A stretch of 64,000 nucleotides of DNA. It comes from a bacterium (lineage in GTDB: Bacteria; Joyebacterota; Joyebacteria; Joyebacterales; Joyebacteraceae). The position numbers and the translations under genes are program-made. Location: NCBI GenBank assembly GCA_025774245.1, contig JALGWI010000008.1:2525-66524 (forward strand), written 5' to 3'. The notes below the pieces were generated by a model. The model was given only the letters and a program-made list of their open reading frames with translations, had not been told where the DNA came from and made no database searches. Positions 5,001 to 32,408 of this stretch are shown piece after piece (the first letter of the stretch is position 1; every line of letters starts with the position of its first letter).

Positions 5001-5453
5001 ATGGCCGTCACGACCGTTGCCTGCGTGCTGAGACGTGCCGCCGACTTCGAGTGCATCCTGATGGACTACTACCTCGGCCTCGCGGAGCAGACGACGCGGG
5101 AGGGGGTCAGGCTCCTCACCGACTACATGGCGCGGCACCGCCGCCGGCTCACCGAGGCGCTCGAGAGGTTCCCGGCCGGCGAGTACAAGAGGATCTCCGT
5201 CCTTCCGATCCGCTACGAGCCGGTCGCTGCGGAGTGCGACCACTTCTCGAGCAGGCCGCTGCCGCGGGACGCGACCGCGGCCGAGGTGCTCGATATCGCC
5301 ATCGAACTGGACGAGTGCCTGATATCGCTCTACCGTCAGGTGATCGAGCAGGACGTCGACCCCGAGGTGAAGGATCTCTTCGAGAGCCTCGTTCACCGTG
5401 AGGAGCGCGACGAGATTCAGCTCAAGAAGATCAAGGCGATGAACTACTTCTGA
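5001..5453 (+). CDS. Hypothetical protein, possibly a four-helix-bundle or ferritin-like fold
   Basis: 150-aa ORF with ordinary amino-acid composition, between nqrF and the polyprenyl synthase in the same orientation. No recognisable motif. Confidence 0.45.
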   Translation: MAVTTVACVLRRAADFECILMDYYLGLAEQTTREGVRLLTDYMARHRRRLTEALERFPAGEYKRISVLPIRYEPVAAECDHFSSRPLPRDATAAEVLDIAIELDECLISLYRQVIEQDVDPEVKDLFESLVHREERDEIQLKKIKAMNYF

Positions 5454-5472
5454 GTCGTCAGGGAACGCACAC

Positions 5473-6480
5473 ATGCAGCTTGCTGACATATACAGACCCG
5501 TCCGGGACGATCTCGACGCCGTCGAGGGTGTGCTTCGCAAGAGCCTGACGGGCACGGGCGATGGATCGATGGCGGAGGTCGGTCGGTACGTCCTCGAGGC
5601 GGGAGGCAAGCGTATGCGACCTGCGCTCGTGCTCCTCTCGGCCGGGGCGTCCGGCGGCGACGCTGCATCGGGTGCCAGGCAGCATCTCGTAGGCCTGGCC
5701 GCCGCCGCGGAGCTCATCCACATGGCGTCGCTCCTTCACGACGACGTCGTAGACGATGCGCGCCTGCGGCACCACAACCCCACGATCAACACGAGGTGGG
5801 GCGACGACGTCTCGATCGCGCTCGGCGACTACCTCTACTCAATCGCGTTCCACCTCATCTCCATGAGCGACGATCCCGGCATCGTCCAGGTCATGAGTTC
5901 CGCCACCGTCGCCATGTGCGAGGGTCAGCTCCTCCAGATCTGCGAGCGGACGAACCTGAACCTCTCCAGGGAGCGCTACGTCGAGATCGTCGAGAAAAAG
6001 ACCGCGGCCCTCTTCGCCGCCTCGGCCGAGGTCGGCGCCTCGCTCTCGAGCCGCAAGGAGTCCCTGAGGCGAGCGCTCCGCGACTACGGATTGAGCCTCG
6101 GCATCTCGTTTCAGATCGTCGACGACTACCTCGACCTCATCGGGGACGAGAAGCGGATGGGAAAGGAGCCCGGTCAGGACATCGCGGCCGGCGAGGCGAC
6201 CCTCCCGATGCTGAACTTGTGGGAGATCCTCTCGGACGAGGAGCGGAAGGCGACGGCCGATCTTCTGTCGTCGCACACCGGCGCCGACGCACTCTCGATC
6301 ATCAGGGAGAAGCTCGTGAGCACCGGGGCGGCCTCGATGACAGAGAAGGCCGCGATATCCTACGCGAACTCGGCGCGCGAGAGCCTGAGCGTGCTCACCA
6401 ACTCCACCTACAAGGAGAGCCTCCTCGGGCTCGCGGACTTCGTGCTCGAGCGCGGGTTCGGGAGCGCGGGAAGGGCGTAG
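5473..6480 (+). CDS. Polyprenyl diphosphate synthase (trans-isoprenyl diphosphate synthase, IspB/HepT/DmkB-like)
   Basis: Two DDxxD motifs (LLHDDVVDD and IVDDYLD), the GKRMRP motif, 335 aa. Confidence 0.85.
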   Translation: MQLADIYRPVRDDLDAVEGVLRKSLTGTGDGSMAEVGRYVLEAGGKRMRPALVLLSAGASGGDAASGARQHLVGLAAAAELIHMASLLHDDVVDDARLRHHNPTINTRWGDDVSIALGDYLYSIAFHLISMSDDPGIVQVMSSATVAMCEGQLLQICERTNLNLSRERYVEIVEKKTAALFAASAEVGASLSSRKESLRRALRDYGLSLGISFQIVDDYLDLIGDEKRMGKEPGQDIAAGEATLPMLNLWEILSDEERKATADLLSSHTGADALSIIREKLVSTGAASMTEKAAISYANSARESLSVLTNSTYKESLLGLADFVLERGFGSAGRA

Positions 6481-18378: not shown

Positions 18379-21300
18379 ATGGCTGACCGAAGGCCGGACG
18401 ATAAGCCCGAACGCGAGATGCTCGAGGCGTTCAAGAAGGCGATGGAGTCGCGGAGTGCGCGCGATGCGGCGCTCACGGCCATCCGCCTCGGAGACGTCTA
18501 CCTCGAGTCGGACAGCTACACCGACGCGCTCGGCTACTACACCCGCGCCGCGGGAACCGAGCTCGGCTCTGAGCTCGCCGACGGTGAGGTGGCCGGTCTC
18601 AATGTTCAGATCGCCAAGTGTCATCTCGGTCTCGGAAACTACGGCAAGGCGCGGGCCTGCTGCGCGAAGCTCGACGATCTCGAGCTCAGCGAGGAAGACA
18701 GCGCGGCCTGGGCGGAGGCGAACGTCGTTCTCGCGCGAATCGAGATCGAGAGCGGCCGGTACGACGAAGCCCTTCGCGCGGCGCAGAAGGCGTACGACAT
18801 ACTCAGGGTAAGCCCCGACAGCCCACTCCTCGCCGAGGCCGGCAAGGCGCTCGGCATCGCCAACGCCGAACTCGGCAACACGCAGGCGGCGCGCGACTAC
18901 TTCACCGACTATCTTGTTTCGCAGAAACGGCTCGGCAACGAGGCCGGGCTCGCCGCGGCGTACAACAACCTCGGCATTCTGGCGAAGCGGACCGGTGACC
19001 TGAACGGCGCGCTCGAGTATCTCGACAGCGCGCTCACGATCGATCGGAAGCTCGGTCGGTCGCTCGCGATCGCCGACCGCCTGACCAACACCGGCATCAC
19101 CCTCTACAGGCTCTCCAGGTGGGCCGAGGCCGAGGAGAAGCTGAACGAGGCGAAGGAGATCTACTCGAGGATCGGCGCGACGAGAGGCATCGCCGCTGCG
19201 CAGACCGCGCTCGGCAACGTCTATCGCGTGCGCCGCGAGTGGGGCCCCGCCCAGGATCTCCTCGAGAGCGCGCTCAGGGTGAGCCGCGACCACGGCTACC
19301 TCCGGACGGAGGCCCTCGCACTCGAGTTCCTCGGCGACCTCCAGATGGATCAGGGCCTGAAGCAGCAGGCGCGCGGAACGCTCGATCAGGCGCTCGGGTG
19401 CGCGTACCGGCTCGCGTCGAACAGCGACGTCGTCGGGGAGGTCCTGAGGCGTCGCGCCGAAGTGCTCTTCGCACTCGGACGGCTCGAGGACGCCGAGCGC
19501 GACTGCTCCGACGGCGTGAAGCTCTGCCGCGAGATCGGCGACAGCCTCGAGGAAGGCGCGTTCCTTCGCGTCCTGGCGAGCATCTGCTACGCCAAGGGCG
19601 AGCGCACCGCCGCAGAGGTCCTCATCGGCCGCACGGAGGACATCCTCCGGAGGGCGGGGGACTCCTTCGAGCTGGCCAAGACCGCGTTCGCCGACGCCGT
19701 CGGCATGCGCGATTCCTCGGCGCCGGGCGAGCTTCCCATCGACCGTATCGAGGCGCGCTTCTCCGCCGCCGAATCGATCTTCACGAGGATCGGCGCCGGC
19801 GACTGGGTCGCCCGGTGCGAGCTCGAGAGAGGGAAGGCGCTCCACCGCGCCGGCCAGCCCGACCGCGCGAGGACGTGGCTCGATCGCGCCAGGCTCAAGA
19901 TGGAAGTGAGCCACGACCGCGAGGGCCTGGCCGAGGTCGACGCCATTCTGAGGGAACTGGACGCGGAGCTCGAAGAGGCCGGCGTCTCCCGTCGGGGGAG
20001 GTACTCGACCATTGCGGAAGGCTACCGCTTTCTCGAGACGACCGAGCCCAAGGCGGAGGACCTGCACGAGTTCGCCATAGAGATCGCGAACGCGATCCCC
20101 GCGGACCGGCTCGTGCTCTTCTCGGTCACGGAGGAAAACGGCCCGGTCGTCGCGACCTCGGTCGATCACACGGGACGGGGAGTGGCCGAGGTCACCAGGT
20201 TCGTCCGGACCACCATCGGGAACCGCGGACACACGAGGCCGCTCATCGTCAGCGACGGGCGCTCGGCCGACGCATACTTCGCGCCGGGCGTGGGCGCCGT
20301 GGCGCTCATCCCGGGCGAGGTCGGGAACGATCGCGGGCGGACGTACCTTCTCTACACCGACCGCGCCAAGAGCGACCGGTCGACGCCGTTCACGCAGAGC
20401 GACATCGAGTTCATCGCCGCGGCCGCCCGCATGCTCGGGCTGGCGTACACGCGGGCCGGCGAATCGCACGCCTGGGAGGCGGACGGCGAGCTGGCGCAGC
20501 AGCTCAGTGAGTCGTCCGACGGGCGCGGGCTGATCACTCGGGATCCCGGCATGCTGCGGCTCCTGGCCAGCGTCGAGCGTCTGAAGGACAGCCACGTCCC
20601 GATCGTCATCCGCGGTGAGTCGGGAGTGGGCAAGGAGCTCATCGCTCGGGCGATCCACGAGGGTGGGCGCAGCAAGACGGGCCGTTTCGTCGCCTTGAAC
20701 GCCGGCGCCATTCCACCCAACCTGCAGGAGAGCGAGCTCTTCGGGCACGTCAAGGGCGCGTTCACCGACGCCGACCGCGACCGCGAGGGACTCGTTCAGG
20801 CCGCTGCCGCCGGCACGCTCTTCCTCGACGAGATCGGCGAGATGAGCTCGCAGCTCCAGGTGAAGCTCCTCAGGTTCCTGCAGAACGGGGAGTACCGACG
20901 TGTCGGCGAGAGCGTGACGAGGACGAGCGACGCCAGGGTCGTCTCGGCGAGCAACAAGGACCTCGCGGAGGAGGTCAAGGCCGGACGCTTCCGGCGCGAC
21001 CTCTTCTACAGGCTCTGCGCCGTCGTCATCCTGGTGCCGCCCCTGAGGGACAGGCCCGACGACGTCCCGCTCCTCATGGAGCACTTCCGGGAGTTCTACT
21101 CGAAGCGCGAGACCAAGCACATCCCCGGGTTCAGCCGCGAGGTGCGGGAGATCTTCCAGCGGTACGACTGGCGCGGGAATAACGTCCGCGAGCTCGAGAA
21201 CGAGGTCCGTCGGGGCGTGGCCCTGGCTGCGGACGGGGAGGTGATCGGGATCGACAAGATCAGCCCCGAGCTCCGCAGCCGCTACGAGGTCAGCCTCGGC

Positions 21301-21471
21301 GACGACGAGCCGCACCGCCGCTCTCTCAAAGACGAGGTTGGGGCGCTCGAGAAGAGCCGGATCCTGGAGGCGCTCTCGAGGACCGGGTGGAACAAGCAGG
21401 CGGCGGCCGACGTCCTCGGCCTGTCGCGCACAGGCCTCCACGCGAAGATGAAGAAGTACGGGCTCGGATAG
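18379..21471 (+). CDS. Sigma-54-dependent transcriptional activator with a large N-terminal TPR-repeat domain
   Basis: Multiple TPR-like repeats in aa 1-500. AAA+ sigma-54 interaction domain (GESGVGKELIARAIH, ESELFGHVKGAFTDA). C-terminal Fis-type HTH (AAADVLGLSRTGLHAKMKKYGL). Confidence 0.85.
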   Translation: MADRRPDDKPEREMLEAFKKAMESRSARDAALTAIRLGDVYLESDSYTDALGYYTRAAGTELGSELADGEVAGLNVQIAKCHLGLGNYGKARACCAKLDDLELSEEDSAAWAEANVVLARIEIESGRYDEALRAAQKAYDILRVSPDSPLLAEAGKALGIANAELGNTQAARDYFTDYLVSQKRLGNEAGLAAAYNNLGILAKRTGDLNGALEYLDSALTIDRKLGRSLAIADRLTNTGITLYRLSRWAEAEEKLNEAKEIYSRIGATRGIAAAQTALGNVYRVRREWGPAQDLLESALRVSRDHGYLRTEALALEFLGDLQMDQGLKQQARGTLDQALGCAYRLASNSDVVGEVLRRRAEVLFALGRLEDAERDCSDGVKLCREIGDSLEEGAFLRVLASICYAKGERTAAEVLIGRTEDILRRAGDSFELAKTAFADAVGMRDSSAPGELPIDRIEARFSAAESIFTRIGAGDWVARCELERGKALHRAGQPDRARTWLDRARLKMEVSHDREGLAEVDAILRELDAELEEAGVSRRGRYSTIAEGYRFLETTEPKAEDLHEFAIEIANAIPADRLVLFSVTEENGPVVATSVDHTGRGVAEVTRFVRTTIGNRGHTRPLIVSDGRSADAYFAPGVGAVALIPGEVGNDRGRTYLLYTDRAKSDRSTPFTQSDIEFIAAAARMLGLAYTRAGESHAWEADGELAQQLSESSDGRGLITRDPGMLRLLASVERLKDSHVPIVIRGESGVGKELIARAIHEGGRSKTGRFVALNAGAIPPNLQESELFGHVKGAFTDADRDREGLVQAAAAGTLFLDEIGEMSSQLQVKLLRFLQNGEYRRVGESVTRTSDARVVSASNKDLAEEVKAGRFRRDLFYRLCAVVILVPPLRDRPDDVPLLMEHFREFYSKRETKHIPGFSREVREIFQRYDWRGNNVRELENEVRRGVALAADGEVIGIDKISPELRSRYEVSLGDDEPHRRSLKDEVGALEKSRILEALSRTGWNKQAAADVLGLSRTGLHAKMKKYGLG

Positions 21472-21963
21472 AGGGCCCCGGGCCGGCTCTATCGGCCCCA
21501 CAGGAGTGTGCTCCACGATCTCCCCCGGGCGCGCCTGCGCCGGGGGTTTCGATTGTCCGGGAGCGGCTTCCTCTGACGGCGGACCCCGCGCCCCACCGCG
21601 TGTCCCCATGTGCCCCCCGCGTGTCCCCGCCCCCCCCCGCCGGATCCCTCCCCGCGGTCCACGTTCTCCGCAGCCTCCTCCAGGGAGGATCCGCGGCCGG
21701 AAGGCCCGCTTTGTCAGCACTTCCAGCGCGTCGAAACCTCGACGACGCGTCAAAATCTCGACGCTCTCGTAACTTCCCATTCTTCAAGCGGTTAAGGCGA
21801 TACCCCCCCGAGACACCGTACGGACCGTCGAAAACGTGCCATGAGGCTGAATCATCAACCATTTGAGCTCGGCGAGCGCGGCCGTAAACTACAGATGGGC
21901 CACATGTTACATGGAGGCTGTCAGAACATGGCTGAGCGGTCATTCAGCCGTTTCTGGCATGGT

Positions 21964-22185
21964 CTATGCGGTAGTAGGGTATCGGTTGGATTGAAAATCG
22001 AATATGGGAGGAAGAGGCGGCCAGGGTGTTAATAATGCAGGGGGGGCGAGTCCGGTCGCTCTTTGGTTCGCCTCTTTCTTCCTGACTCTCGGCTCCCCGG
22101 AAGATTCGGGGGGATGAAAATAGAGGGTTGTTATGCCGAGCACGGTGAGAGTGAGAATGAAGGTAATGGTCGTGATCCTGCTCAT
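21964..22185 (-). other. Small ORF (73 aa, N-terminal transmembrane helix) with atypical low-GC codon usage inside a low-GC patch. Coding status uncertain.
   Basis: MSRITTITFILTLTVLGITTLYF... AGGTGA lies 9 nt upstream. Codons are ATT/ACT/ATA/TTT-rich, unlike the surrounding GC3-rich genes. Confidence 0.2.
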
Positions 22186-22359
22186 CGGTATCGCATCACC
22201 TGTGCTCGGCTGAGATTACGACAGCTCGCGAAAGCACCCGCAGCTGTAATCGATATAGACAGAGCGGCAGAGCAACGGTCAGCGTCACAGCAAGGAGCAC
22301 ACACTAACAGCACCACCAGCGCGGTTCTTCTCCGCGGGCTCCGTTCCGAGCAGCAACTC

Positions 22360-22376
22360 TGGTCAGCATTTTGCTT
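22360..22376 (+). promoter_or_regulatory. Candidate sigma-54 (-24/-12) promoter upstream of the radical SAM gene
   Basis: TGGTCAGCATTTTGCT: GG and GC at the consensus 12-nt spacing, with a TTGCT -12 element (consensus TGGCACG-N4-TTGCW). A weaker second match TGGCATGGTCTATGCG lies at 21955-21970. Confidence 0.3.
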
Positions 22377-22568
22377 CTCACCTTTCGAGGACGGAGCTGG
22401 CCCACACGGCCGGCAGGAAAGCAGATGACTCTCCCGCAACTGCCCTGCCGGCCGAACCTCGTTCTGGAACAGCATCCCCTTTCATTCGCACCGTCCCGCA
22501 CACCCGAGTCGCAGCGACAGCGCGTCGCGCAGGCCACGCGCTGAGCTCGATCCCCGTCGTTCGCGCTG

Positions 22569-22620: not shown

Positions 22621-25113
22621 TTGGAGAGCAGACCCGCCGTGACGGACCATCGCGTCGAGCTCAGACGTATCGCCGATGGGTTCGCGGCCGCACTCGCTGA
22701 CGTGCGCGGGGCGCCGGGAACCGCAGGAAGCGACAGGGGGCTTCGGCCCGACAACCTGTCTCTCATGATGCCGTTCTATCTCATCGAGGCGGAGCCGTTC
22801 GACGGAGACGTCGACGCCGCGCGCGTGATGGCGCTCGGCAACGCCTTCGGCGCCACCCACTTCCTTCTCCAGGACAGAGAACTCGACGGCGACGAACGGC
22901 CGAGCCCGGGGGGCTGCCACCTGTCGGATCGGTGCCTCGTCCTCTTCGCGCGCCAGTACGGGCGGCTCTTCTCGGGCGGGAGGTTCTGGAGCTTCCTCGA
23001 TCGCTACCTCGGCGAGTACTTCGCGAGCCTCTCGTGGGAGCGCGAGGTGCTGGGGACCCGCGCGGGGGCGGCGGCCGTTTCCGAGGACGAGTTGCCGTCG
23101 ACCCTCACCAGACTCGGGCACAAGATCTCTCCTCTGAAGGCGTGTGCGTGCGCGGTGTCGATGCTCGCGGGGCGTGAGGATCGCCTGCCGCTGATGGAAC
23201 GGGTGATCGAGAGGTTCCACACGGCGTACCAGCTCGCTGACGATCTGGAGGACCTGGCGGACGATCTCGAGGCGAATCGGTGGTCGGTCGTGAGCTGGAT
23301 CCTGGCGCGCTCGGCCGGGCTCGACGAGCCGCCCGCCGGCCGCGCGGTCGATCGACTCCTCTCCGGCGGGCTCGCTGCCGGGGCGCTGCCCGCGATCATC
23401 GATACTATAGACGAGAACTACGCTTCCGCGATCGAGGACGCCGAGAGGCTCGGTGCGCCCTCGCTTCGCTCGCACCTCGAGCGGTGTCGCCGGCGGACGG
23501 CGGCCATCCACCACTGGATGTCGCGGCGGCTCTCGATCGTCCTGAGATCGATGGAGGGGGCCGGCGGGACGGAGGGACCGCGCGCGGAGAACACCGGCTC
23601 GCTCCGGGCGGACGCGCCCGCCCGTCTCCTCCGCCGGGTGCACGCGTTCGAGGTACGGGGCCAGGCGTACGTTCTCGATATCGACTCGGGCCTCTTCTTC
23701 GAGGCGGACCGGCTGGCGTTCGACGTGATCGAATGGCTCAGGCGCGGCGCGGGTCAGGCCGAACTCGACGTGCTGCGGATGAACTCGGGGCAGGAGCCGG
23801 TCGGCGAGGCGATCCGCGAGGTCTGGGGCCTGGTCGATCCGGGCGCGCCCACGCTCCCGGCGGGCGACGAATCCGGCGGGCTCCCGCTCTGGGACGACGT
23901 GCCCGGCGACGTGCTGCCGCCCGGGATCGCCGCGCTGGCGCTCAACCTCACCGACGGGTGCAACCTCCGGTGCGACTACTGCTATCTCGGCGGGAACGCG
24001 GAGGCGAGCCCGCAGGCGACACCGGCCGCGCCCCCGGGCACGGCTCCCGCCGCGAACGGCGGCGTGGCGCCGGTGCTCATGTCCGAGGAGACGGCGCTCC
24101 GCGCCGTCGATCTCCTCATCGACGAATCGCTCGGCGAGTCGCGTCTCTCGATCGTCTTCTTCGGCGGCGAGCCGCTTCTGAACCCGTCGCTCATCGAGAG
24201 CGTCGTCGGCCACGCCAGGAACCGCGTGCGTGCGGACGGCCGCGCCGTGACCTTCCACATGACCACGAACGGGACGCTCCTGACACCGCGGATGTCGGAA
24301 CGCCTGCACTCGCTCGGCGTGGGCATCCTCGTGAGCATCGACGGCGCCGCGTGCGACCACGACGCGCACCGCGTCTTCCCCGGCGGCGGAGGTTCGTACT
24401 CGACGATCGTCGCGAACCTCCTGGGGCTGCCGGAGGGGATGCGGGTCGGAGCGCGGGCGACCGTCACGGAGGAATCGCGCCCGCTCAGCGTGATCGTGGA
24501 GCACCTGAGGGGGCTCGGGTTCTCCGTGGTGCACCTCGCGCCGGTGAGCGGGCCGCCGATGTCGGCTGAGTTCTCCTCGCGACTCTGTGACGAGTTCGAG
24601 GAGCTCGCGCGCCGGGAACTCGAGGCGGTGCGCGACGGGCGGCCGCCGTCGGTGGGGAATCTCGTCGAGCCGGTTCTGGCGCTGCGGACCGGTGCGCGGC
24701 GGCCCGCCCCGTGCGGCGCCGGAGCGCGCTACGTCGCCGCGGGAGCGGACGGCACACTGTCGTTCTGCCACCGCTTCGCCGGCGACGCGCGGTTCGTCGT
24801 GGGCGACGTGGGGGGCGGGCTCGATCGCGACGCGGTGAGGCGCCTCCTCGGGCGGCTCCCCGCCGAGGCGGCCGCGTGTCGCGAGTGCTGGGCGCGCCAC
24901 CTCTGCGGCGGACCGTGCCTGTACGACCTCACGTACTCTCCCGAGGACACGGTCGGCAACGACGCGCCTCGCTGCCGGCTGAGGCGCAGGATCTTCGAGC
25001 TGGCGATGTGGATCTACGCTTCGCTGCCGGGAGATGGGCGCGCGAGGCTGGCGGGCATCGCGAGGAGGGACGTGAGGCCCGAGATCGGAGCCGGGAAGGA
25101 GCCAGGGTCGTAA
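22621..25113 (+). CDS. Radical SAM/SPASM peptide-modifying enzyme with an RRE (PqqD-like) domain and an additional ~330-aa N-terminal domain of unknown function
   Basis: CNLRCDYCY (CxxxCxxC) radical SAM motif. C-terminal SPASM Cys cluster (CGAGARY...FCHRF...CRECWARHLCGGPC). RRE-like segment VHAFEVRGQAYVLDIDSGLFFEADRLAFDVIEWL. N-terminal domain has an acidic QLADDLEDLADDLE motif. An alternative GTG start at 22639 has a better RBS (GGAGAG). Confidence 0.85.
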   Translation: MESRPAVTDHRVELRRIADGFAAALADVRGAPGTAGSDRGLRPDNLSLMMPFYLIEAEPFDGDVDAARVMALGNAFGATHFLLQDRELDGDERPSPGGCHLSDRCLVLFARQYGRLFSGGRFWSFLDRYLGEYFASLSWEREVLGTRAGAAAVSEDELPSTLTRLGHKISPLKACACAVSMLAGREDRLPLMERVIERFHTAYQLADDLEDLADDLEANRWSVVSWILARSAGLDEPPAGRAVDRLLSGGLAAGALPAIIDTIDENYASAIEDAERLGAPSLRSHLERCRRRTAAIHHWMSRRLSIVLRSMEGAGGTEGPRAENTGSLRADAPARLLRRVHAFEVRGQAYVLDIDSGLFFEADRLAFDVIEWLRRGAGQAELDVLRMNSGQEPVGEAIREVWGLVDPGAPTLPAGDESGGLPLWDDVPGDVLPPGIAALALNLTDGCNLRCDYCYLGGNAEASPQATPAAPPGTAPAANGGVAPVLMSEETALRAVDLLIDESLGESRLSIVFFGGEPLLNPSLIESVVGHARNRVRADGRAVTFHMTTNGTLLTPRMSERLHSLGVGILVSIDGAACDHDAHRVFPGGGGSYSTIVANLLGLPEGMRVGARATVTEESRPLSVIVEHLRGLGFSVVHLAPVSGPPMSAEFSSRLCDEFEELARRELEAVRDGRPPSVGNLVEPVLALRTGARRPAPCGAGARYVAAGADGTLSFCHRFAGDARFVVGDVGGGLDRDAVRRLLGRLPAEAAACRECWARHLCGGPCLYDLTYSPEDTVGNDAPRCRLRRRIFELAMWIYASLPGDGRARLAGIARRDVRPEIGAGKEPGS

Positions 25114-25157: not shown

Positions 25158-25334
25158 GTGAGGTACCTGAGGATCGCGAACGGGCCGGGAGTGGCCCGTG
25201 CGTGGAGTTCGCGGAGCTCGAAGAAAGACGTCTGTCTGATCGACTACGCGAGCTGCGCGGGATCGGACGTCTGCTGGCTGCTCGACATCGAGAGCGACTG
25301 CATGTCGAACGACGGCTGCATCGTCGACACCTAA
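25158..25334 (+). CDS. RiPP precursor peptide 1 (Cys/Asp-rich, ranthipeptide-like)
   Basis: (M)RYLRIANGPGVARAWSSRSSKKDVCLIDYASCAGSDVCWLLDIESDCMSNDGCIVDT. GTG start 8 nt after GAAGGGAGG; alternative GTG starts at 25149 and 25152. Five Cx3-4D units. Lies immediately 3' of the maturase. Confidence 0.6.
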   Translation: MRYLRIANGPGVARAWSSRSSKKDVCLIDYASCAGSDVCWLLDIESDCMSNDGCIVDT

Positions 25335-25384: not shown

Positions 25385-25570
25385 GTGAGGTTGAAGCACC
25401 TGAGACTCGCCAACGGCGCAGAGGGCGCGGCCGGGACGGTACGAATGGCGCCCAGTCCGTTCCTCTGCTACATCTTCATCGACTGGGGAGACTGCAACTC
25501 GATCGACCAGTGCGGGTTCGACTTCGCGGACTGCGTGAGTGGCGGGGACATCTGTCTCATCGACTACTAG
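25385..25570 (+). CDS. RiPP precursor peptide 2 (Cys/Asp-rich, ranthipeptide-like)
   Basis: (M)RLKHLRLANGAEGAAGTVRMAPSPFLCYIFIDWGDCNSIDQCGFDFADCVSGGDICLIDY. GTG after a GGGGAAGGGGG RBS. An alternative ATG at 25334 overlaps the peptide 1 stop. Five Cx3-5D units. Confidence 0.6.
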   Translation: MRLKHLRLANGAEGAAGTVRMAPSPFLCYIFIDWGDCNSIDQCGFDFADCVSGGDICLIDY

Positions 25571-25646: not shown

Positions 25647-25814
25647 GTGAAGCACCTGAGACTCAAGAACGGACCCGTGTCGGGATCTGCCGCACACGCG
25701 GCACGGGAGTGCTGCGTCCCGTACATCGATTGGGGCGGATGCAACGCGGTCGACTACTGCGGGCAGGACGTCCTGGACTGCCTGGGGGGTGATCTCTGTG
25801 ACCTCGACTACTAG
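25647..25814 (+). CDS. RiPP precursor peptide 3 (Cys/Asp-rich, ranthipeptide-like)
   Basis: (M)KHLRLKNGPVSGSAAHAARECCVPYIDWGGCNAVDYCGQDVLDCLGGDLCDLDY. This is the only in-frame start after the peptide 2 stop and it is preceded by GGAGGGAGAGGAGG. Six Cys, each followed by Asp at +3 to +5. Confidence 0.65.
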   Translation: MKHLRLKNGPVSGSAAHAARECCVPYIDWGGCNAVDYCGQDVLDCLGGDLCDLDY

Positions 25815-27195
25815 ATCGGCGCGGTCCGCGGGCGCGGGTGTGGCTCGCGGGGCCGGCGCGCTCGGCCCACCGGTCGTTCTCGCCGTGCTGCTCGGCGCGC
25901 CGGTCGGAGCGGCGGGCGGGCTTGCCTTCGAGCAGCTGTGGGAGGTACCGCTGGGGCTTCCGTCCCGGGGTACCTCGGACGTGCGCCTCGTCGACTTCGA
26001 CGGGGACGGTCGGACGGAGATCCTGATCGCGCGCTGGCGGCGAGGCGAGCCGGGCGACCTCCTGGTCCTCGATGGGGCGACCGGTAGCGAGAGCTGGCGG
26101 GTCGGCCTCGAGGAGCGGCCGTACGTCGAGACGTGCGACGTCGGTGGGGACGGCAGGATCGAGGTGCTCGCCGCCGTCGGCAACGGACTTCTCGTGATCG
26201 ACGGGGCGTCGGGCGAAACGATCACGACCGTGGGGCTTGCGGGCGAAGCCGGCGCGCTCGCGGTCGGGCACCTCGACGGCGACGAGACCGTGGACGTCGT
26301 CTACGCGGCCGGTGACGAGCGATGCGACGTGCTCGTCGCGCTCGCCGGAGCGGGGGAGAAGGAACTCTGGCGGCGGGAGGCGGAGCCGGCGGAAGGGCGC
26401 TTCGACGAGGGCTTCGGGTTCCTCGTCGCGACCGACGTCGACGGTGACGGTCTGGACGAGGTGCTCGTGACGGAGAACATGAACGTCCTTCTCTGTCTCG
26501 CTTCCGGAGGCGACCTCTCCTGGTCGGCGGTCCTCGGCGAGAAGGGGACGCTCGTTCCGGAGGGCGCCGCGAGCTCCGTTCCGGTCGTCGCGGATCTCCT
26601 GGGCGACGGCGTCAACGAGATCGCCGTCGGCTGCTACGCGGGAGCGCTCGTCGTTCTCGACGGAGCGACCGGCGAGGCGCTCTCGCGGTCGGCCCCGTTC
26701 GGGATCGAATCGCACGCCCGGTACACAAAGAGGGGACGGTTCACTCGTCCCCTCCGCGAGCTCCTGGCGAGGACGGGCGAACCGATCCTCGGGCTCCTGG
26801 CGGTCGATCTGGTCGGTGGGCCCGCGCGCGAACTCGCGTTCGGATGCGCCGACGGCATCTTCTACGCCGTCGATCCTCGCACGGGCACGGAACTCTGGCG
26901 CTACGAGGAGGGAGGCAAGGTCACCGAGCCTGCCGTCGCGCTCGACGCCACGGGCGACGGCGTCGCCGATCTCCTCGTCCGGGACCAGGGGGGAGCGTTC
27001 GTGCTCGACGGGACCGGCGAGGGCGAAGTCGATGTCGGGCCGCTCCCCGACGTGCGCGCCGCCTCGAGCGTCGTCGCGGGCGATGTGAACGCGGACGGCG
27101 TTCTCGATCTGGTCGTCGTGAGCGTGAGGGAGAACCGCGTGGCCGCATGGACGACGGGACTCCCGTGTCCGTCGTCGAACGAGAAGTCGCGATGA
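25789..27195 (+). CDS. Secreted FG-GAP/VCBS-repeat (beta-propeller-like) protein
   Basis: Repeated DxDGDG motifs (DFDGDGRTE, DVGGDGRIE, DVDGDGLDE, DVNADGVLD, DATGDGVAD). Hydrophobic N-terminal segment. The start is uncertain because it overlaps the peptide 3 3' end. Confidence 0.65.
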   Translation: MISVTSTTRSARSAGAGVARGAGALGPPVVLAVLLGAPVGAAGGLAFEQLWEVPLGLPSRGTSDVRLVDFDGDGRTEILIARWRRGEPGDLLVLDGATGSESWRVGLEERPYVETCDVGGDGRIEVLAAVGNGLLVIDGASGETITTVGLAGEAGALAVGHLDGDETVDVVYAAGDERCDVLVALAGAGEKELWRREAEPAEGRFDEGFGFLVATDVDGDGLDEVLVTENMNVLLCLASGGDLSWSAVLGEKGTLVPEGAASSVPVVADLLGDGVNEIAVGCYAGALVVLDGATGEALSRSAPFGIESHARYTKRGRFTRPLRELLARTGEPILGLLAVDLVGGPARELAFGCADGIFYAVDPRTGTELWRYEEGGKVTEPAVALDATGDGVADLLVRDQGGAFVLDGTGEGEVDVGPLPDVRAASSVVAGDVNADGVLDLVVVSVRENRVAAWTTGLPCPSSNEKSR

Positions 27196-27887
27196 GCGCC
27201 GGGGCGACACCTGCCGCGTCGCTCGTCTCTCTCCTGAACGTCCGGAAGTCCTACGGCAAGCGGGGGCGCTCGGTCGAAGCGCTCGCTCCGCTCACGCTCT
27301 CGGTCGGTCGGGGAGAGTCCGTCGCGCTGGTCGGACCGAACGGTGTCGGGAAGACGACGGCGCTCAAGATCGTCGCGACGCTCGTCGAGCCGACGTCCGG
27401 CACGGCGATCGTGTGCGGACACGACGTCGTCGGCGATTCCGGACGGGCGCGCCGCGCCGTCGGCGTGTCCCTCGGGTCTCGCCGCTCGTTCTACTGGAGA
27501 CTGACCACGCGGCACAACCTGTCGTTCTTCGCGAGGCTCAGGGGCGTCCGCGGCGCGAGGATCCCCGCGGAGATCGACCAGGTCGCCCGTGAGATGGGAC
27601 TCGGTCCGAACCTGGACCTTCCGGTCAGACGCCTCTCGCGGGGAGCGCTCGCGAGGCTCTCCGTCGGGCGGGCGATGCTCGGGGATCCCACCGTGCTCCT
27701 TCTCGACGAACCCCTGGCGTCGGTCGATCGCGCCGGGCGAGAGCTCGTCTGGCGCGCGATCGAGAGACGCCTCGCCGCCGGCGCCTGTCTGCTCCTGGCG
27801 ACCCACGAACCGGAGGTGGCGTCCCGGTGCGGCTCGGCCGTGTCGCTCGCCGGAGCTCCCCGCGTGCCGGGGAGGGCGGCGCGATGA
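27192..27887 (+). CDS. ABC transporter ATP-binding protein
   Basis: Walker A GPNGVGKTT, signature LSRGALARL, Walker B LLLDEP. ATGA start-stop overlap with the upstream gene. Confidence 0.8.
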   Translation: MSAGATPAASLVSLLNVRKSYGKRGRSVEALAPLTLSVGRGESVALVGPNGVGKTTALKIVATLVEPTSGTAIVCGHDVVGDSGRARRAVGVSLGSRRSFYWRLTTRHNLSFFARLRGVRGARIPAEIDQVAREMGLGPNLDLPVRRLSRGALARLSVGRAMLGDPTVLLLDEPLASVDRAGRELVWRAIERRLAAGACLLLATHEPEVASRCGSAVSLAGAPRVPGRAAR

Positions 27888-28735
27888 GAGACGACGTTCA
27901 CTGGCTCCGACGCGCGGTCCGCGCGGCGCGGATCCTGTGCGGCGTGGCGTGGGCGTTCGCGTCGCGGAGCGTCGCCACGTACGCGAGCTACCGGGCCAAG
28001 CTCTCGCTCGGGCTGGCGTCGCTCGTCCTGTCGCTCGTGACGTTCTCGTTCGTCGGCCGCGTCGTCTCGAGCGCCGGCTCCGGGTTCGTCGACCGCTACG
28101 GGATGAGCTACTCGTCGTTTGTCATCGTCGGCGTGCTCGTCCACGGCGCGGCCTCCGCCGGGCTCTCGTCGTTCCGCTCGTCGGTGCGCCGCGAGCAGCT
28201 CCAGGGGACGCTCGAGCTCCTCGCCGTCACGCCGGTTCCCGTGCCGCTCGTCCTGTTCCTCTCCGGGCTCGGCGAGATCGCCATCGCCGCGGCGGGCGGC
28301 GCGGCCCTTCTCGCGCTCGCGGCTGTGTTCCTCGGCTTCGAGATCACGCTCTCGCTCCCGCTCGTCGCGGCCGTCGTCCTCTACGGTGTCGCCGCGTGCG
28401 GGATCGGTCTCGCCTCCGCGGGGATCATCCTCGTCTCGAAGGAGGGCGAGCCGCTCTCCTGGGGGTTCGGGGCGATCGCCGGGCTCGTGGGCGGCGTCTA
28501 CTTCCCGGTCGACCTCCTGCCTTCGTGGCTGCGGCGCGTCTCGGTCGCCCTTCCCACCACGCACGCGCTTCGCCTCGCCCGCGCGGGCCTCTCGGGGGCC
28601 GGCGCCGACGCGTCGACGTCCTCGTCGCTCGTCCTCCTCGGGGCCACCGCCGGTCTCGCGCTGGTCGCCGGGTTTCTCGTCCTCCACTGGGGATACCGCT
28701 CCGCGCGGCGCGCGGGGACGCTCGGGGAGTACTAG
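27884..28735 (+). CDS. ABC-2 type transporter permease
   Basis: Six predicted transmembrane helices. Translationally coupled (ATGA) to the ATPase. Confidence 0.75.
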   Translation: MRDDVHWLRRAVRAARILCGVAWAFASRSVATYASYRAKLSLGLASLVLSLVTFSFVGRVVSSAGSGFVDRYGMSYSSFVIVGVLVHGAASAGLSSFRSSVRREQLQGTLELLAVTPVPVPLVLFLSGLGEIAIAAAGGAALLALAAVFLGFEITLSLPLVAAVVLYGVAACGIGLASAGIILVSKEGEPLSWGFGAIAGLVGGVYFPVDLLPSWLRRVSVALPTTHALRLARAGLSGAGADASTSSSLVLLGATAGLALVAGFLVLHWGYRSARRAGTLGEY

Positions 28736-28897
28736 ACGTCCCGCGATCGCGCCGCCCGGCGCACCCGCCCGCTTTCCGCTTGCTCTCGTCTCACGCCGTA
28801 GTGTCTAATGAGAGGATCGCCGCTCGCGCCGGTCGTTCCTCGCGGTGGACGCGTCCCGCGCCGCCGCGATCGCCGCACCCGACTCCGGAGTTCCGCG

Positions 28898-30706
28898 ATG
28901 ACCTCGAAAAGGCCCAGCTATCTCCCGATCGCGTCGATCGTCGTGGGCATCGTCATTCTCGCGATCGCCGTCGGCGTCGCCTCGTTCCGCGACATCGACC
29001 GGGGACGCCAGCAGGTCGCTGACGTGCTCGACCGCCAGGCGAGGTTCGCGATCGGGTCGCTCGGGGCGGCCGTGCGGGCCAGCTTCATGGCGCCGAACTG
29101 GGATCGACCGCACCTCGATCTGATCCTGCAGGGCGCGGCGGGCGACGAGGAGATCAGCCACGTGGCGATCCTCGACGCCGACGGGACGATCGTCGCGCAC
29201 AGCGATCCCGAGCGGGTCGGAACCGTCTGGGAGGGGAGCGGGCTTCTCGAGGCCGTGGCGGACCGGCGGTTCTTCGCAAGTCGCGTCATTCAGACCGACG
29301 GCCTGACGGTCCACGAGTACGTGGCGCCGTTCCCTCCGTTCCCGCGCCGTCTCACCGCGGCCATGATCCGGCGGGCGCCGCACAGGATCCTCGAGCTCGA
29401 GGCCATGTACGGCCGCATCTCGGTGCTCCTGAACAGGCGGGTCGCACCCGGCGAGAACCTCAATCTCTTCATGGTGATCGGCCTCGACTCGACGCAGCTC
29501 GACGCCGGGTTCCTCGCGTCGAGGAACCACACGTTCATGATGTCCGGCATCCTCCTTCTGATCGGCGGCATCGCGATCTACTTCCTCTTCCTGATGGCTC
29601 ACTACCGGTCGGTCAGGACGGCCCTCGCGAACATGCGTTCGTACACGACCAACGTGATCGAGAGCATGGGGAGCGGACTCGTCTCGTTCGACGCCGACGC
29701 GCGTCTCGTCACCGTGAACTCGAGGGCTCGCTCCCTTCTCAGCATTCCCTCGGGCGATGTCGCGGGTACGCCGATCGACGACGTCCTCGCCTTCGAATCG
29801 GACGCCGACAGGGCCGGCGTCTACGGCGTCATGAGCGGCGCCGCGGACACGTTCGAGTCCGAGGCCAGGCTCGTCGCGGGGAGCGACACCATCCCGGTGG
29901 CCCTCGCCGCCTCGTCGCTCAGGGACGAGGCGGGGGAGCGGTCGGGGTCGGTCGTGCTGCTCCAGGACATGCGCGAGATCGAATCGCTCAAGGAGGAGGT
30001 CGCGAGGGAACGCCACCTGGCGTCGCTGGGCAGGCTCGCGGCGGGCGTCGCGCACGAAGTCAGAAACCCCCTGAGCTCGCTCAAGGGTTTCGCCCAGTTC
30101 CTCCGGACCAAGTTCACGCCAGGGTCCCGGGAGGAGCGATACGCCGACATCATGATCGAGGAGGTCGAGCGGCTCGACCGCGTCGTTCAGGAACTCCTCG
30201 ACTTCGCGAAGCCGATCACGCCCGAGAAGAGGGCGGCCGATCTGAACGCGATCGTCGAGGAAGCGCTCTCGCTCGTCGTCGACGACGCCCTCTACAGAGA
30301 GGTCGAGATCGCGCGGGAGCTGGGCGACGGTCTCCCGCACGTGTTCGTCGACCCCGGGCAGGTTAAGCAGGCGCTTCTCAACATCCTCCTGAACGGACTC
30401 GAGTCGATGGGCGACGACGGCGGGACGCTCACCGTGGCGACGTCGGCCGATGGCGGCTCGGGTGGCAGCGTCGCGATCGCCGTCTCCGACACGGGAGCCG
30501 GCATGACGGACGAGGAGATCGCGAAGCTCTACGAGCCGTTCTACACGACGAAGCCGTCGGGCACGGGTCTCGGCCTCACGATCGTGTCGAGGATCATCGA
30601 GCAGAACGACGGTCACGTCCGCGTCGCGAGCGCGAAGGGCGAGGGAACGACGTTCACGATCGAGCTGCCGGCGGCGTCGGGACGCGGCGCGCGGCCGGCC
30701 GCCTGA
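28898..30706 (+). CDS. Sensor histidine kinase (NtrB/AtoS-like) with a periplasmic sensing domain, PAS, HisKA and HATPase
   Basis: Two N-terminal transmembrane helices flank a ~190-aa loop. H-box HEVRNPLSSLKGF. ATP-binding motifs (DTGAGMTDEE, GTGLGL). Confidence 0.8.
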   Translation: MTSKRPSYLPIASIVVGIVILAIAVGVASFRDIDRGRQQVADVLDRQARFAIGSLGAAVRASFMAPNWDRPHLDLILQGAAGDEEISHVAILDADGTIVAHSDPERVGTVWEGSGLLEAVADRRFFASRVIQTDGLTVHEYVAPFPPFPRRLTAAMIRRAPHRILELEAMYGRISVLLNRRVAPGENLNLFMVIGLDSTQLDAGFLASRNHTFMMSGILLLIGGIAIYFLFLMAHYRSVRTALANMRSYTTNVIESMGSGLVSFDADARLVTVNSRARSLLSIPSGDVAGTPIDDVLAFESDADRAGVYGVMSGAADTFESEARLVAGSDTIPVALAASSLRDEAGERSGSVVLLQDMREIESLKEEVARERHLASLGRLAAGVAHEVRNPLSSLKGFAQFLRTKFTPGSREERYADIMIEEVERLDRVVQELLDFAKPITPEKRAADLNAIVEEALSLVVDDALYREVEIARELGDGLPHVFVDPGQVKQALLNILLNGLESMGDDGGTLTVATSADGGSGGSVAIAVSDTGAGMTDEEIAKLYEPFYTTKPSGTGLGLTIVSRIIEQNDGHVRVASAKGEGTTFTIELPAASGRGARPAA

Positions 30707-30723
30707 GCCGCGAGGGGAATCGG

Positions 30724-32067
30724 ATGGACGCCAGGAGCATGAGGATCCTCGTCGTCGACGACCAGTCGAGTGTGCGGCAGCTTCTCAAGGCCGTGCTCGA
30801 GGAGGACGGACACGAGATCGACACGGCGCCCGACGGGGAGAAGGCGCTCGAGGCCGTCGCCGCGGGCTACCACGACCTCGTCGTGATGGACATCCGGATG
30901 CCGGGGATCGACGGCGTCGAGGCGCTCGAGCGGATGCGCGCGTCGAGCCCTCAGACGGCCGTCGTCATGATGACCGCGTACGCCTCGGTCGAGACCGCGG
31001 TGCGGGCCATGAAGCTCGGCGCCTTCGACTACGTCACGAAGCCGATCGACATCGACGAGGTCCGGGCCGTCGTCGCGCGGTTCATCGAGTCGTCCGGCCC
31101 TCCCGACGCCGTCGAGGAGGCGCCGCCCAAGCCGTCGAGGGAGATCATCGGGGCGAGCGAGACGTTCCGGGAGATGCTCTCGGTCGTCCACAGGGTCGCC
31201 GAGAGCGACGCGAGCGTTCTCCTTCTCGGCGAGAGCGGGACCGGCAAGGAGGTCATCGCGAAGGAGATCCACCGCGCCGGCCCCCGCGCCCGGAAGCCGT
31301 TCGTCGCCATCAACTGCTCTGCGATCCCGGAGGGTCTCCTCGAGAGCGAGCTCTTCGGGCACGAGAAGGGCGCGTTCACCGGTGCGGTCCGTCTGAAGAA
31401 GGGACGCTTCGAGCTGGCCAACGGCGGCACGGTTTTCCTCGACGAGATCGGCGACATGTCGCGGGCGCTCCAGGCGAAGCTCCTGAGGTTCCTCCAGGAC
31501 CACACGCTGTCGAGGGTCGGAGGAGGGCAGGACATCACGGTTGACGTCCGCGTGGTCGCGGCGACGAACCGCGATCTCGAGCGCGCGGTGGCGGACGGCG
31601 ACTTCCGCCAGGACCTCTACTTCCGGCTGAACGTCGTCACGATCACGATCCCGCCGCTCCGCGATCGCCAGGAAGACGTGCCGCTCCTGGTGGAGCACTT
31701 CCTGAAGCTCCACGCGCCGGAACGGGGCAAACCGAAGAAGATGTCGCCGCGCGCGATGCGCATCGCCATGAACTACGACTGGCCCGGGAACGTCCGCGAG
31801 CTCGAGAACGCCGTCCAGAGGGCGGTCGTCCTCTCGCGCGGAGAGACGATCTTCCCCGAGCACCTGCCCGCGAAGGTGCAGGCGACGGGCGGCGATCCCG
31901 GGGCTGAGACGCTCGAGGTGGGGAAGACCATCCGGGAGGTCGAGCGGGACATCATCGAGAAGACACTCAAGCAGACCGACGGGAACCGCACGAAGGCATC
32001 CGAGATCCTCGGCATCTCGCGGCGGACCCTCCAGAACAAGATCAAGGAGTACAAGATCGACCTCTGA
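30724..32067 (+). CDS. Sigma-54-dependent response regulator (NtrC/AtoC family)
   Basis: REC domain (VVDDQSSVRQLL...D). AAA+ domain (GESGTGKEVIAKEIH, ESELFGHEKGAFTGA). C-terminal Fis HTH. Confidence 0.9.
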   Translation: MDARSMRILVVDDQSSVRQLLKAVLEEDGHEIDTAPDGEKALEAVAAGYHDLVVMDIRMPGIDGVEALERMRASSPQTAVVMMTAYASVETAVRAMKLGAFDYVTKPIDIDEVRAVVARFIESSGPPDAVEEAPPKPSREIIGASETFREMLSVVHRVAESDASVLLLGESGTGKEVIAKEIHRAGPRARKPFVAINCSAIPEGLLESELFGHEKGAFTGAVRLKKGRFELANGGTVFLDEIGDMSRALQAKLLRFLQDHTLSRVGGGQDITVDVRVVAATNRDLERAVADGDFRQDLYFRLNVVTITIPPLRDRQEDVPLLVEHFLKLHAPERGKPKKMSPRAMRIAMNYDWPGNVRELENAVQRAVVLSRGETIFPEHLPAKVQATGGDPGAETLEVGKTIREVERDIIEKTLKQTDGNRTKASEILGISRRTLQNKIKEYKIDL

Positions 32068-32408
32068 GCGGCGGCTCCGGGACCGCGCTCCGCGGCGACG
32101 GGGAGCGGCCTTCGGAGGTGCGAAGATTCTGCGCAGTGGGTCCTCCCATCTGGGAAGGACCTGCGCAGCCGGACGCGTCGATCGCTCCCGGAAGCGCGTC
32201 GCTCGCGATCCTGCGCGCGCGTAACCCGCTGAATCCTCGGCGGTTGCACGATCATCAGAAAAGGGTGCGGCGGTTGTCCGGAGCTGGCATGCCGGTTGCA
32301 CAAAACGGGGAGTGTGGGAACGCTCCCGGCGGACCGAAAGAGGACGAACGGAGAAACGGTCACGGGGAGCACAAGACGGGAGAGTCGAAGGAAGGAAAGG
32401 GGAGAACC

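Follow-up and report, generated by a model that had tools for sequence, protein, structure and literature searches.

A PalQ-type prenyltransferase homologue fused to a radical SAM/SPASM peptide maturase beside a family of Cys- and Asp-rich precursor peptides

The gene at 22621-25113 (forward strand) of a 64,000-nucleotide stretch of a Joyebacterota genome (GCA_025774245.1, contig JALGWI010000008.1, positions 2,525 to 66,524; hereafter the window, meaning the whole stretch that was analysed) encodes a protein of 830 residues. In the translation of its open reading frame (ORF), a prenyltransferase-like domain is followed by a linker, a recognition element (RRE) for peptides that are made on the ribosome and modified after translation (RiPPs), a radical S-adenosylmethionine (SAM) core and a SPASM domain. 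The N-terminal domain is almost certainly a homologue of PalQ, the RiPP tryptophan C3-prenyltransferase of Paenibacillus alvei (PMC10853753), and small genes directly downstream encode a family of putative precursor peptides. On sequence grounds we hold with moderate confidence that the fused protein is both an active prenyltransferase and an active maturase, and that it would act on these peptides to give a prenylated, thioether-bridged product.

Results

The gene and its domains are as follows.

22621..25113, + strand: gene for the putative bifunctional enzyme (ORF and translation; uniform frame in third-codon-position G+C, GC3; full-length AlphaFold2, AF2, model)
22642..23562, + strand: N-terminal PalQ-like prenyltransferase domain of trans-isoprenyl diphosphate synthase (trans-IPPS) fold, residues ~8-314
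22870..22887, + strand: equivalent of the first Asp-rich motif (FARM), QDRELD (D85, D89); invariant in the fused family and aligned to D89/D93 of the PalQ family
23227..23271, + strand: region of the second Asp-rich motif (SARM), YQLADDLEDLADDLE (Y203, Q204, D207, D208, D211, D215); invariant in the fused family
23614..23835, + strand: PqqD-like RRE, residues ~332-405, between the two catalytic domains (strands and helices of the model; NCBIfam models start at residues 339-340)
23959..23982, + strand: radical SAM cluster motif CNLRCDYC (CX3CX2C; sequence; PF04055, E 9e-15)
24712..24987, + strand: Cys of the SPASM auxiliary clusters (C-X12-G-X4-C ... CX2CX5CX3C ... C; sequence; fold match to CteB)

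The gene is continuous, and its fusion is recurrent. Long spurious ORFs are common in the window because of its G+C of 65-72%, and the frame was therefore checked by GC3, which stays at 0.86-0.93 throughout ~22700 to ~24950 in the frame of 22621-25113 (+), with no frame switch. This uninterrupted frame indicates a single gene, which starts at TTG 22621 or, alternatively, at GTG 22642. An ORF of 1011 residues on the opposite strand was rejected as a composition artefact by the same test. Pfam recognises only Radical_SAM and Fer4_12 in the full protein (residues 442-599), and Pfam and NCBIfam coverage is confined to residues ~339-810, so that ~330 N-terminal residues lie outside every maturase model; the extra domain ahead of the RRE that the initial annotation had proposed is thereby confirmed. 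It could be asked whether an error of sequencing or assembly had merged two adjacent genes into the long ORF, as one related contig carries the prenyltransferase and radical SAM halves in different frames (L005, 3886-6421; a frameshift or assembly error, and the sole case seen). The identical architecture, however, recurs in ten or more independent contigs of metagenome-assembled genomes (MAGs) and in many lineages, and among the 150 best representatives of 50%-identity clusters, about 30 have a radical SAM/SPASM C-terminal half; in all, the fusion is seen in more than 30 metagenome-derived representatives. This recurrence rules out an assembly artefact, and together with the continuous coding frame of the window gene it leaves the mis-fusion of an upstream gene effectively excluded. 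All ten fused relatives that were looked up are unnamed or "uncharacterized" in their sources.

The N-terminal domain has the all-alpha trans-IPPS fold. As a single sequence it gave nothing in Pfam, NCBIfam and the PDB beyond sub-threshold polyprenyl-synthase matches: residues 1-338 alone matched PF00348 (polyprenyl_synt) around the DDLED motif at E 0.24, with 11 bits against a gathering score of 27, and geranylgeranyl diphosphate synthases among the PDB sequences at E 0.04-0.1. A family profile was required. Word-indexed protein searches returned one relative for the single sequence (a partial Eisenbacteria protein, likewise fused) and two for a 90-sequence profile, and an exhaustive HMMER search with a two-sequence profile against 1.84 billion representatives (E <= 1e-3) returned 518. 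The best ~15 of these are 776-860 residues long and share the architecture of the window protein; the remainder are mostly stand-alone proteins of 300-340 residues. The family consensus reads "LPFWL", "QDxxxD", "FW", "KxxPLK" and "QLxDDxxDWxxDL". D89 and D215 (window numbering) are invariant over 90 diverse members, and P51, D85, D89, K173, Q204, D207, D208, D211 and D215 are the same in all 25 full-length fused proteins compared, with identity down to ~20%. The AF2 model of residues 1-316 (predicted local distance difference test, pLDDT, 92.6; predicted template-modelling score, pTM, 0.91) is all helical. Foldseek with this model against the PDB retrieved only trans-prenyl diphosphate synthases, at a template-modelling (TM) score of ~0.67 over the whole domain, and the family profile matched trans-IPPS among the PDB sequences at E 4e-6 and 2e-5. 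The predicted structure, the fold search and the profile comparisons all place the domain in the trans-IPPS fold, and they bear out the early likening of QLADDLEDLADDLE (residues 204-217 in the translation) to the Asp-rich motifs of isoprenoid synthases.

Within that fold, profile comparisons identify the domain as a homologue of PalQ-type prenyltransferases with the residues reported to be functional intact, and as neither a chain-elongating synthase nor a terpene cyclase. Paenibacillus PalQ-like proteins of ~310 residues are among the relatives (HMMER E 1e-10 to 1e-15), labelled 'class 1 isoprenoid biosynthesis enzyme' or 'hypothetical' in their sources. Their invariant residues are numbered exactly as PalQ D89/D93/Q197/D200/D201/D204, and they agree with the PalQ-homologue alignment in the supplement of PMC10853753, taken by optical character recognition (for example, P0132 = A0A410X357). 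Alignment of ten fused N-domains to 14 PalQ-like proteins with hhalign gave a probability of 100 and E 7e-42 over 282 columns, equating window D85/D89 with PalQ D89/D93, K168/K173 with K161/K166, Q204 with Q197, and D207/D208/D211/D215 with D200/D201/D204/D208. The residues named in PalQ are the FARM pair D89/D93, the SARM pair D200/D204 and the pair Q197/D201 (PMC10853753, PMC12510300). In Ord1 the equivalents of the last pair are Q216/D219; the Q216A mutation nearly abolishes Ord1 activity, and the Gln-Asp pair, modelled in PalQ, is reported to be required for indole prenylation in Ord1 (PMC12510300). The window protein has the FARM Asp pair (PalQ D89/D93; Ord1 D85/D89) as D85/D89, invariant and aligned, which, in an alignment to a manually entered IspA sequence, also match the first Asp and the last Asp of its FARM. 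Its Gln before the SARM and the SARM Asp are Q204 and D207/D208, with the residue roles as given in PMC12510300 and PMC13290415. The label "unknown function" is therefore superseded, as the PalQ family was characterised in 2023-2024 (PMC10853753, PMC13290415). Among the roles suggested at first, a second tailoring activity is supported by full-length homology to PalQ-type peptide prenyltransferases, and a leader peptidase can be set aside, with no protease fold or motif in the domain.

Two other identities were considered and rejected. A canonical chain-elongating trans-prenyl diphosphate synthase was dismissed because PF00348 stays below its gathering score and the GKRxRP and RRG motifs are missing: in two alignments, to PDB trans-IPPS and to the manually entered IspA, no basic residue faces the basic isopentenyl diphosphate (IPP)-binding motif GKRxRP, and the RRG after the FARM is not conserved. 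A class I terpene cyclase was dismissed because the nearest folds are not those of terpene cyclases and an NSE/DTE second motif was not found.

The C-terminal part (residues ~332-817) is, by its motifs and predicted fold, a CteB/PapB/QhpD-like maturase composed of RRE, radical SAM and SPASM domains. The strings first quoted for its PqqD-like RRE, CNLRCDYCY core and C-terminal Cys cluster are all present in the translation: VHAFEVRGQAYVLDIDSGLFF begins at residue 340 in the RRE region, CNLRCDYCY spans residues 447-455 with the radical SAM Cys C447/C451/C454, and the seven-Cys SPASM pattern consists of C698, C716, C753, C756, C762, C766 and C785. NCBIfam maturase models align from residues 339-340 to ~800-810, with E-values of 2e-71 (QhpD), 5e-68 (PapB), 4e-61 (nif11-type) and 7e-50 (SCIFF maturase) and with bit scores, against the cut-offs, of 241/453, 230/340, 207/519 and 170/425, respectively. 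Judged by these models, the maturase half is related to all four families and is a member of none. The full-length AF2 model (pLDDT 83.3, pTM 0.85) lays out a helical domain (residues 10-312), a disordered linker (315-331), an RRE of three strands and three helices (340-405) directly N-terminal to the radical SAM core, and then the radical SAM barrel and the SPASM domain. Foldseek with the C-terminal half returned CteB (5wgg/5why; TM 0.83-0.87 on the target, 26% identity), followed by ChlB and anSME. Right after CX3CX2C the window protein carries a Pro/Ala-rich insert of 29 residues (457-485; 23989-24075), which is predicted to be disordered; related loci carry just ~8-14 residues at this position.

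Three tandem, unannotated small genes lie directly after the maturase stop codon, each with a purine-rich ribosome-binding site (RBS). They had gone unmentioned in the initial annotation.

25158..25334, + strand: precursor 1, 58 residues, leader MRYLRIANG..., core CLIDYASCAGSDVCWLLDIESDCMSNDGCIVDT (small ORF; GGGAGG 8 nt before GTG; orthologues in place)
25385..25570, + strand: precursor 2, 59-61 residues, start at GTG 25385 or TTG 25391, core CYIFIDWGDCNSIDQCGFDFADCVSGGDICLIDY (RBS, orthologues, alignment)
25647..25814, + strand: precursor 3, 55 residues, leader MKHLRLKNG..., core CCVPYIDWGGCNAVDYCGQDVLDCLGGDLCDLDY (RBS, orthologues, alignment)

Orthologues are found at the same place in the related loci that extend far enough, and one alignable precursor family comprises 19 members from ten or more loci. 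Its N-terminal motif is M(K/R)HL(R/K)xANG, in a leader of ~25 residues. In the cores of all 19 members ten Cys and Asp are invariant and strictly alternating (C26 D29 C33 D37 C39 D43 C48 D52 C54 D57), giving the five Cys...Asp pairs of a repeated Cys-Xn-Asp/Glu precursor of the ranthipeptide/SCIFF type; NCBIfam models gave no match to the precursors. Each of the 19 aligned precursors, the three of the window included, also has a single core Trp, so that a Trp-containing ribosomal peptide substrate is encoded nearby. The distribution of this Trp in the alignment looks like selection for its presence, not its position. A distant fused relative, L021, encodes two precursors of the form MKKHIRLINEA...CW(I/L)DFASGCG..DSCTVDYT, with the Trp kept.

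The prenyltransferase family is joined to several other partners. Members are fused to squalene-hopene-cyclase-like alpha/alpha-toroid domains, with the toroid on either side, and two proteins of ~1100 residues (P0020, P0025) are triple fusions of toroid, prenyltransferase and radical SAM/SPASM; these toroid observations come from P0020, P0025, P0029, P0031, P0144, P0148 and L017-L020. One protein, P0151, has an N-terminal methyltransferase fused to the prenyltransferase domain. A metagenome scan for the low-GC fused subgroup yielded mostly further Eisenbacteria-type loci and prenyltransferase-cyclase fusions. Stand-alone homologues of ~310-330 residues do exist (the PalQ-like proteins), a point that the initial annotation had proposed to check; however, no stand-alone prenyltransferase lies next to the two closest unfused maturases inspected (P0170 and P0171), one of which belongs to an ordinary SCIFF locus. 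In Streptomyces sp. MUM 203J (L012, 7381-13149), an apparent B12-binding radical SAM gene (judged by eye) is directly followed by two tandem prenyltransferase-like paralogues that both have a long C-terminal extension, an arrangement that may be a different radical SAM/prenyltransferase partnership. Some family members match the NCBIfam 'SCO2321 family membrane protein' model.

Some members also show weak Pfam matches to polyprenyl_synt and Terpene_syn_C_2. Together with a fold common to such enzymes, these matches would suit an N-domain that uses free isoprenoids, as a terpene synthase or a chain-elongating synthase, and whose link to the maturase is purely physical; we consider this reading very improbable.

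The surrounding genes suggest regulation, export and sensing functions around the fused maturase.

18379..21471, + strand: sigma-54 enhancer-binding protein with tetratricopeptide repeats (TPR), upstream of the cluster (Pfam; syntenic, 74-84% identity in all related loci)
21955..21969, + strand: candidate sigma-54 promoter TGGCATGGTCTATGC (GG-N10-GC; conservation in four loci)
25789..27195, + strand: FG-GAP/beta-propeller protein with a hydrophobic, signal-like N-terminus, start uncertain (Pfam FG-GAP_3, E 5e-23; synteny)
27200..28735, + strand: ATP-binding cassette (ABC) transporter, with the ATPase at ~27200-27887 (PF00005, DrrA-like NCBIfam) and a putative permease at 27827-28735 (by position and synteny only)
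28808..32067, + strand: sensor histidine kinase (28808-30706) and sigma-54-dependent response regulator (30724-32067; Pfam, conserved synteny)

The whole locus is syntenic in Eisenbacteria-like MAGs, in the order RlmN, creatininase-family protein, TPR/sigma-54 activator, intergenic block of ~550 nt, fused maturase, two or three precursors, FG-GAP protein, ABC ATPase and permease, histidine kinase and sigma-54 response regulator; identity between the syntenic loci is 50-57% for the maturase and 74-84% for the activator. An FG-GAP/PQQ-like gene also follows the precursors in the distant, lower-GC fused relatives (L021, 9479-10806; L022, 3192-3743), which suggests that the FG-GAP protein is a functional partner of the system, perhaps as a receptor or in immunity or processing.

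The sequence at 21955-21969 is a candidate sigma-54 promoter, conserved as TGGCAC/TG-N4-(A/T)TGC in four loci. A search of the window with the strict sigma-54 consensus at <=2 mismatches missed it, as it differs at three positions, and the pattern is not enriched in the window. A near-consensus sigma-54 promoter with one mismatch, TGGCATGCCGGTTGCA, lies at 32285-32300, just downstream of the response-regulator gene. The intergenic block between the activator and the maturase (21930-22480, ~550 nt) begins just past the sigma-54-like promoter. Its nucleotide sequence is conserved far more strongly than the genes on either side, and four loci share long invariant stretches within it. It contains a hydrophobic ORF of 26 codons (22133-22213, +) and an opposing ORF of 73 codons (21964-22185, -); Rfam gave no match to the block, which may serve as a long structured leader or encode a small RNA or a tiny membrane peptide.

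Isoprenoid metabolism is also represented in the gene context. In L022 there is a 19-nt overlap between the start of the fused gene and an isopentenyl-diphosphate isomerase gene (1-483; NF002995, E 3e-36), which provides independent contextual support for isoprenoid chemistry. In the window a canonical polyprenyl diphosphate synthase gene is located at 5443-6480, ~16 kb upstream of the cluster (tblastn with Escherichia coli IspA, E 1e-21), and indicates that allylic diphosphates are available. Genes of peptidase S8 and peptidase C25 lie divergently just upstream of the maturase in L021 (266-5459), a possible means of leader processing; no counterpart was seen in the window.

Discussion

Architecture, fold, PalQ-type homology, key residues, precursor family and synteny are the observations on which our model of the fused enzyme is built. 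The single RRE would bind the M(K/R)HL(R/K)xANG leader of the three downstream precursors. The radical SAM/SPASM part would form up to five intramolecular thioethers, from the five invariant Cys to the five invariant Asp. The N-domain would bind an allylic prenyl diphosphate via Mg2+ and D85/D89 and transfer the prenyl group to the peptide, the likeliest acceptor being the one Trp of the core, which Q204 and D207/D208 would hold in position. This would yield a peptide with a lipid group and several staples, probably exported by the adjacent ABC system. If ComQXPA and PalPXQ are a guide, the neighbouring histidine kinase and sigma-54 response regulator may sense it. From the same observations we infer, beyond what they show directly, the catalytic activity, the donor chain length, the acceptor, the order of reactions, the thioether regiochemistry and any signalling role.

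Several points weigh against an active prenyltransferase-maturase. Its activity is inferred from homology. The maturase half misses all the NCBIfam equivalog cut-offs, and its thioether chemistry is thus assigned by analogy. The second Asp of the canonical FARM is replaced by Arg (QDRELD). The Asp pair that binds Mg2+ in Ord1, and in PalQ according to a model, is nonetheless kept. No prenyl-diphosphate synthase is linked to the cluster, the sole canonical one in the window being ~16 kb away, and a leader peptidase was not identified within the window. The Trp occurs at four alignment positions, which a strictly site-specific enzyme would not tolerate. Finally, the sole visible precursor of L022 lacks Trp, with the Cys/Asp scaffold and the C-terminal DYT kept on a contig that ends ~650 bp further on, and Trp may therefore not be the universal acceptor.

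The last two points lead to the question of the acceptor. The enzyme might be an active prenyltransferase whose acceptor is not Trp but a Cys thiol, Tyr, an Asp carboxylate or a peptide terminus, as could be argued from the Trp-less precursor of L022, from a Trp position that varies among precursor types, and from the Tyr or other aromatic residue and the many nucleophiles found in every aligned core. We judge this unlikely. All characterised trans-IPPS-like peptide prenyltransferases target Trp (PMC13290415), the indole-recognition Gln-Asp pair is invariant in the fused family, 21 of the 22 precursors overall have a core Trp (L022 being the exception), and the radical SAM domain is expected to use the Cys and Asp. 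Trp itself is as the acceptor an evenly balanced proposition.

The degenerate FARM, relative to DDxxD, raises the further question of whether the N-domain is catalytically dead and serves the maturase as a module for peptide docking, dimerisation or scaffolding. PalQ binds the precursor leader directly and its SARM mutant D200A/D204A is still active, so that the motifs tolerate change (PMC10853753), and homodimers are common among trans-IPPS-fold proteins (PMC13290415). Nevertheless, the metal- and indole-binding residues are all invariant at ~20% identity, which would be unexpected for a scaffold, an IPP isomerase gene and the fused gene overlap in L022, and the protein already has a dedicated RRE. 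A dead module is therefore improbable, and the pure scaffold considered in the initial annotation has no support. In order of likelihood, the alternatives to an active prenyltransferase-maturase that modifies Trp rank as another acceptor, a dead module, an enzyme of free terpenes and, last, an assembly artefact.

If the enzyme is active on both counts, the system could be the first example of a new hybrid RiPP class of 'prenylated ranthipeptide-like' products, in which one RRE feeds two chemically unrelated active sites, for radical SAM thioether stapling and for Mg2+-dependent Trp prenylation, and the product is a ComX-like lipidated pheromone, sensed by the co-located kinase and regulator and autoinduced via the conserved sigma-54 promoter. 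We advance this wider picture tentatively, as something that falls short of an even chance. If the predicted activities are borne out, a single compact protein would carry two catalysts for making peptides that are both lipidated and conformationally locked, the precursors would constitute a new family whose (Cys...Asp)x5 + Trp core is highly regular, the enzyme would offer a case in which to study how two active sites are served by one RRE, and Eisenbacteria, an uncultivated phylum documented solely by metagenomes, would gain a candidate system of cell-cell signalling. The fused maturase is in any case a strong, readily testable genome-mining lead, and not a new principle.

Comparison with known systems

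In the ComQXPA quorum-sensing system of Bacillus, the genes of a prenyltransferase and its peptide lie with those of a histidine kinase and a response regulator, a combination that the window locus parallels. The trans-isoprenyl diphosphate synthase-like (trans-IDS-like) peptide prenyltransferases, defined in PMC13290415, comprise ComQ, PalQ and the P domain of ChrPC; Trp is the residue prenylated by every characterised member. The PalP-PalX-PalQ cluster, a further parallel, is described in PMC10853753. The window N-domain shares with PalQ whole-domain homology, the same fold, the conserved FARM D...D, the K...K, the Gln and the SARM Asp, and in both systems a precursor and a histidine kinase are encoded alongside. 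PalQ differs in being a stand-alone protein of ~310 residues that modifies the C-terminal Trp of an NHLP-type precursor, whereas the window domain is fused to an RRE-radical SAM/SPASM maturase, its precursors have short leaders and an internal Trp, and identity is just ~17-22%. Ord1, a free-Trp/indole farnesyltransferase (PDB 9v4g; PMC12510300), differs from the window domain: its substrate is a free indole, it stands alone, and in sequence it is much nearer to canonical prenyl synthases. ComQ resembles the N-domain as an enzyme of the IPPS fold that prenylates the Trp of a small ribosomal peptide (PMC10853753, PMC13290415). ComQ, set apart here by its description, is without a true SARM, ComX carries no thioethers, and no radical SAM enzyme takes part.

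On the maturase side, CteB (SCIFF), PapB (ranthipeptide) and QhpD likewise combine an RRE, CX3CX2C and a seven-Cys SPASM domain with substrates rich in Cys and Asp, and PapB and QhpD-type enzymes cross-link Cys-Xn-Asp patterns of the kind seen in the window precursors. The window protein differs from all three by its 330-residue N-terminal prenyltransferase domain and its 29-residue Pro/Ala-rich insert.

A related published architecture is that of ChrPC (Hubrich et al. 2024, as described in PMC13290415), which joins a trans-IDS-like P domain to another tailoring domain and modifies an internal Trp in a RiPP. According to that description, which is the basis of our comparison, the partner in ChrPC is a class II cyclase, whereas the window partner is a radical SAM/SPASM cross-linker. 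Relatives of the window domain include ChrPC-like fusions of P and squalene-hopene-cyclase-like domains as well as the triple fusions with radical SAM. In the full-text literature we found no description of a prenyltransferase and radical SAM stapling on one polypeptide or peptide; subscription journals were thinly covered, and a prior mention is possible. A compendium of 15,000 RRE-radical SAM enzymes does not mention prenyl or terpene domains, and the word "radical" is absent from the April 2026 review of trans-IDS-like peptide prenyltransferases (PMC13290415). Both halves of the window protein are already known as kinds of RiPP enzyme, and a prenyltransferase-terpene cyclase fusion has been published (ChrPC). 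The fusion of a prenyltransferase to RRE, radical SAM and SPASM domains, the precursor family, and the predicted prenylated, multiply thioether-bridged product appear to be new, and the fusion repertoire of the prenyltransferase family now extends over prenyltransferase-cyclase, prenyltransferase-radical SAM, cyclase-prenyltransferase-radical SAM and methyltransferase-prenyltransferase proteins.

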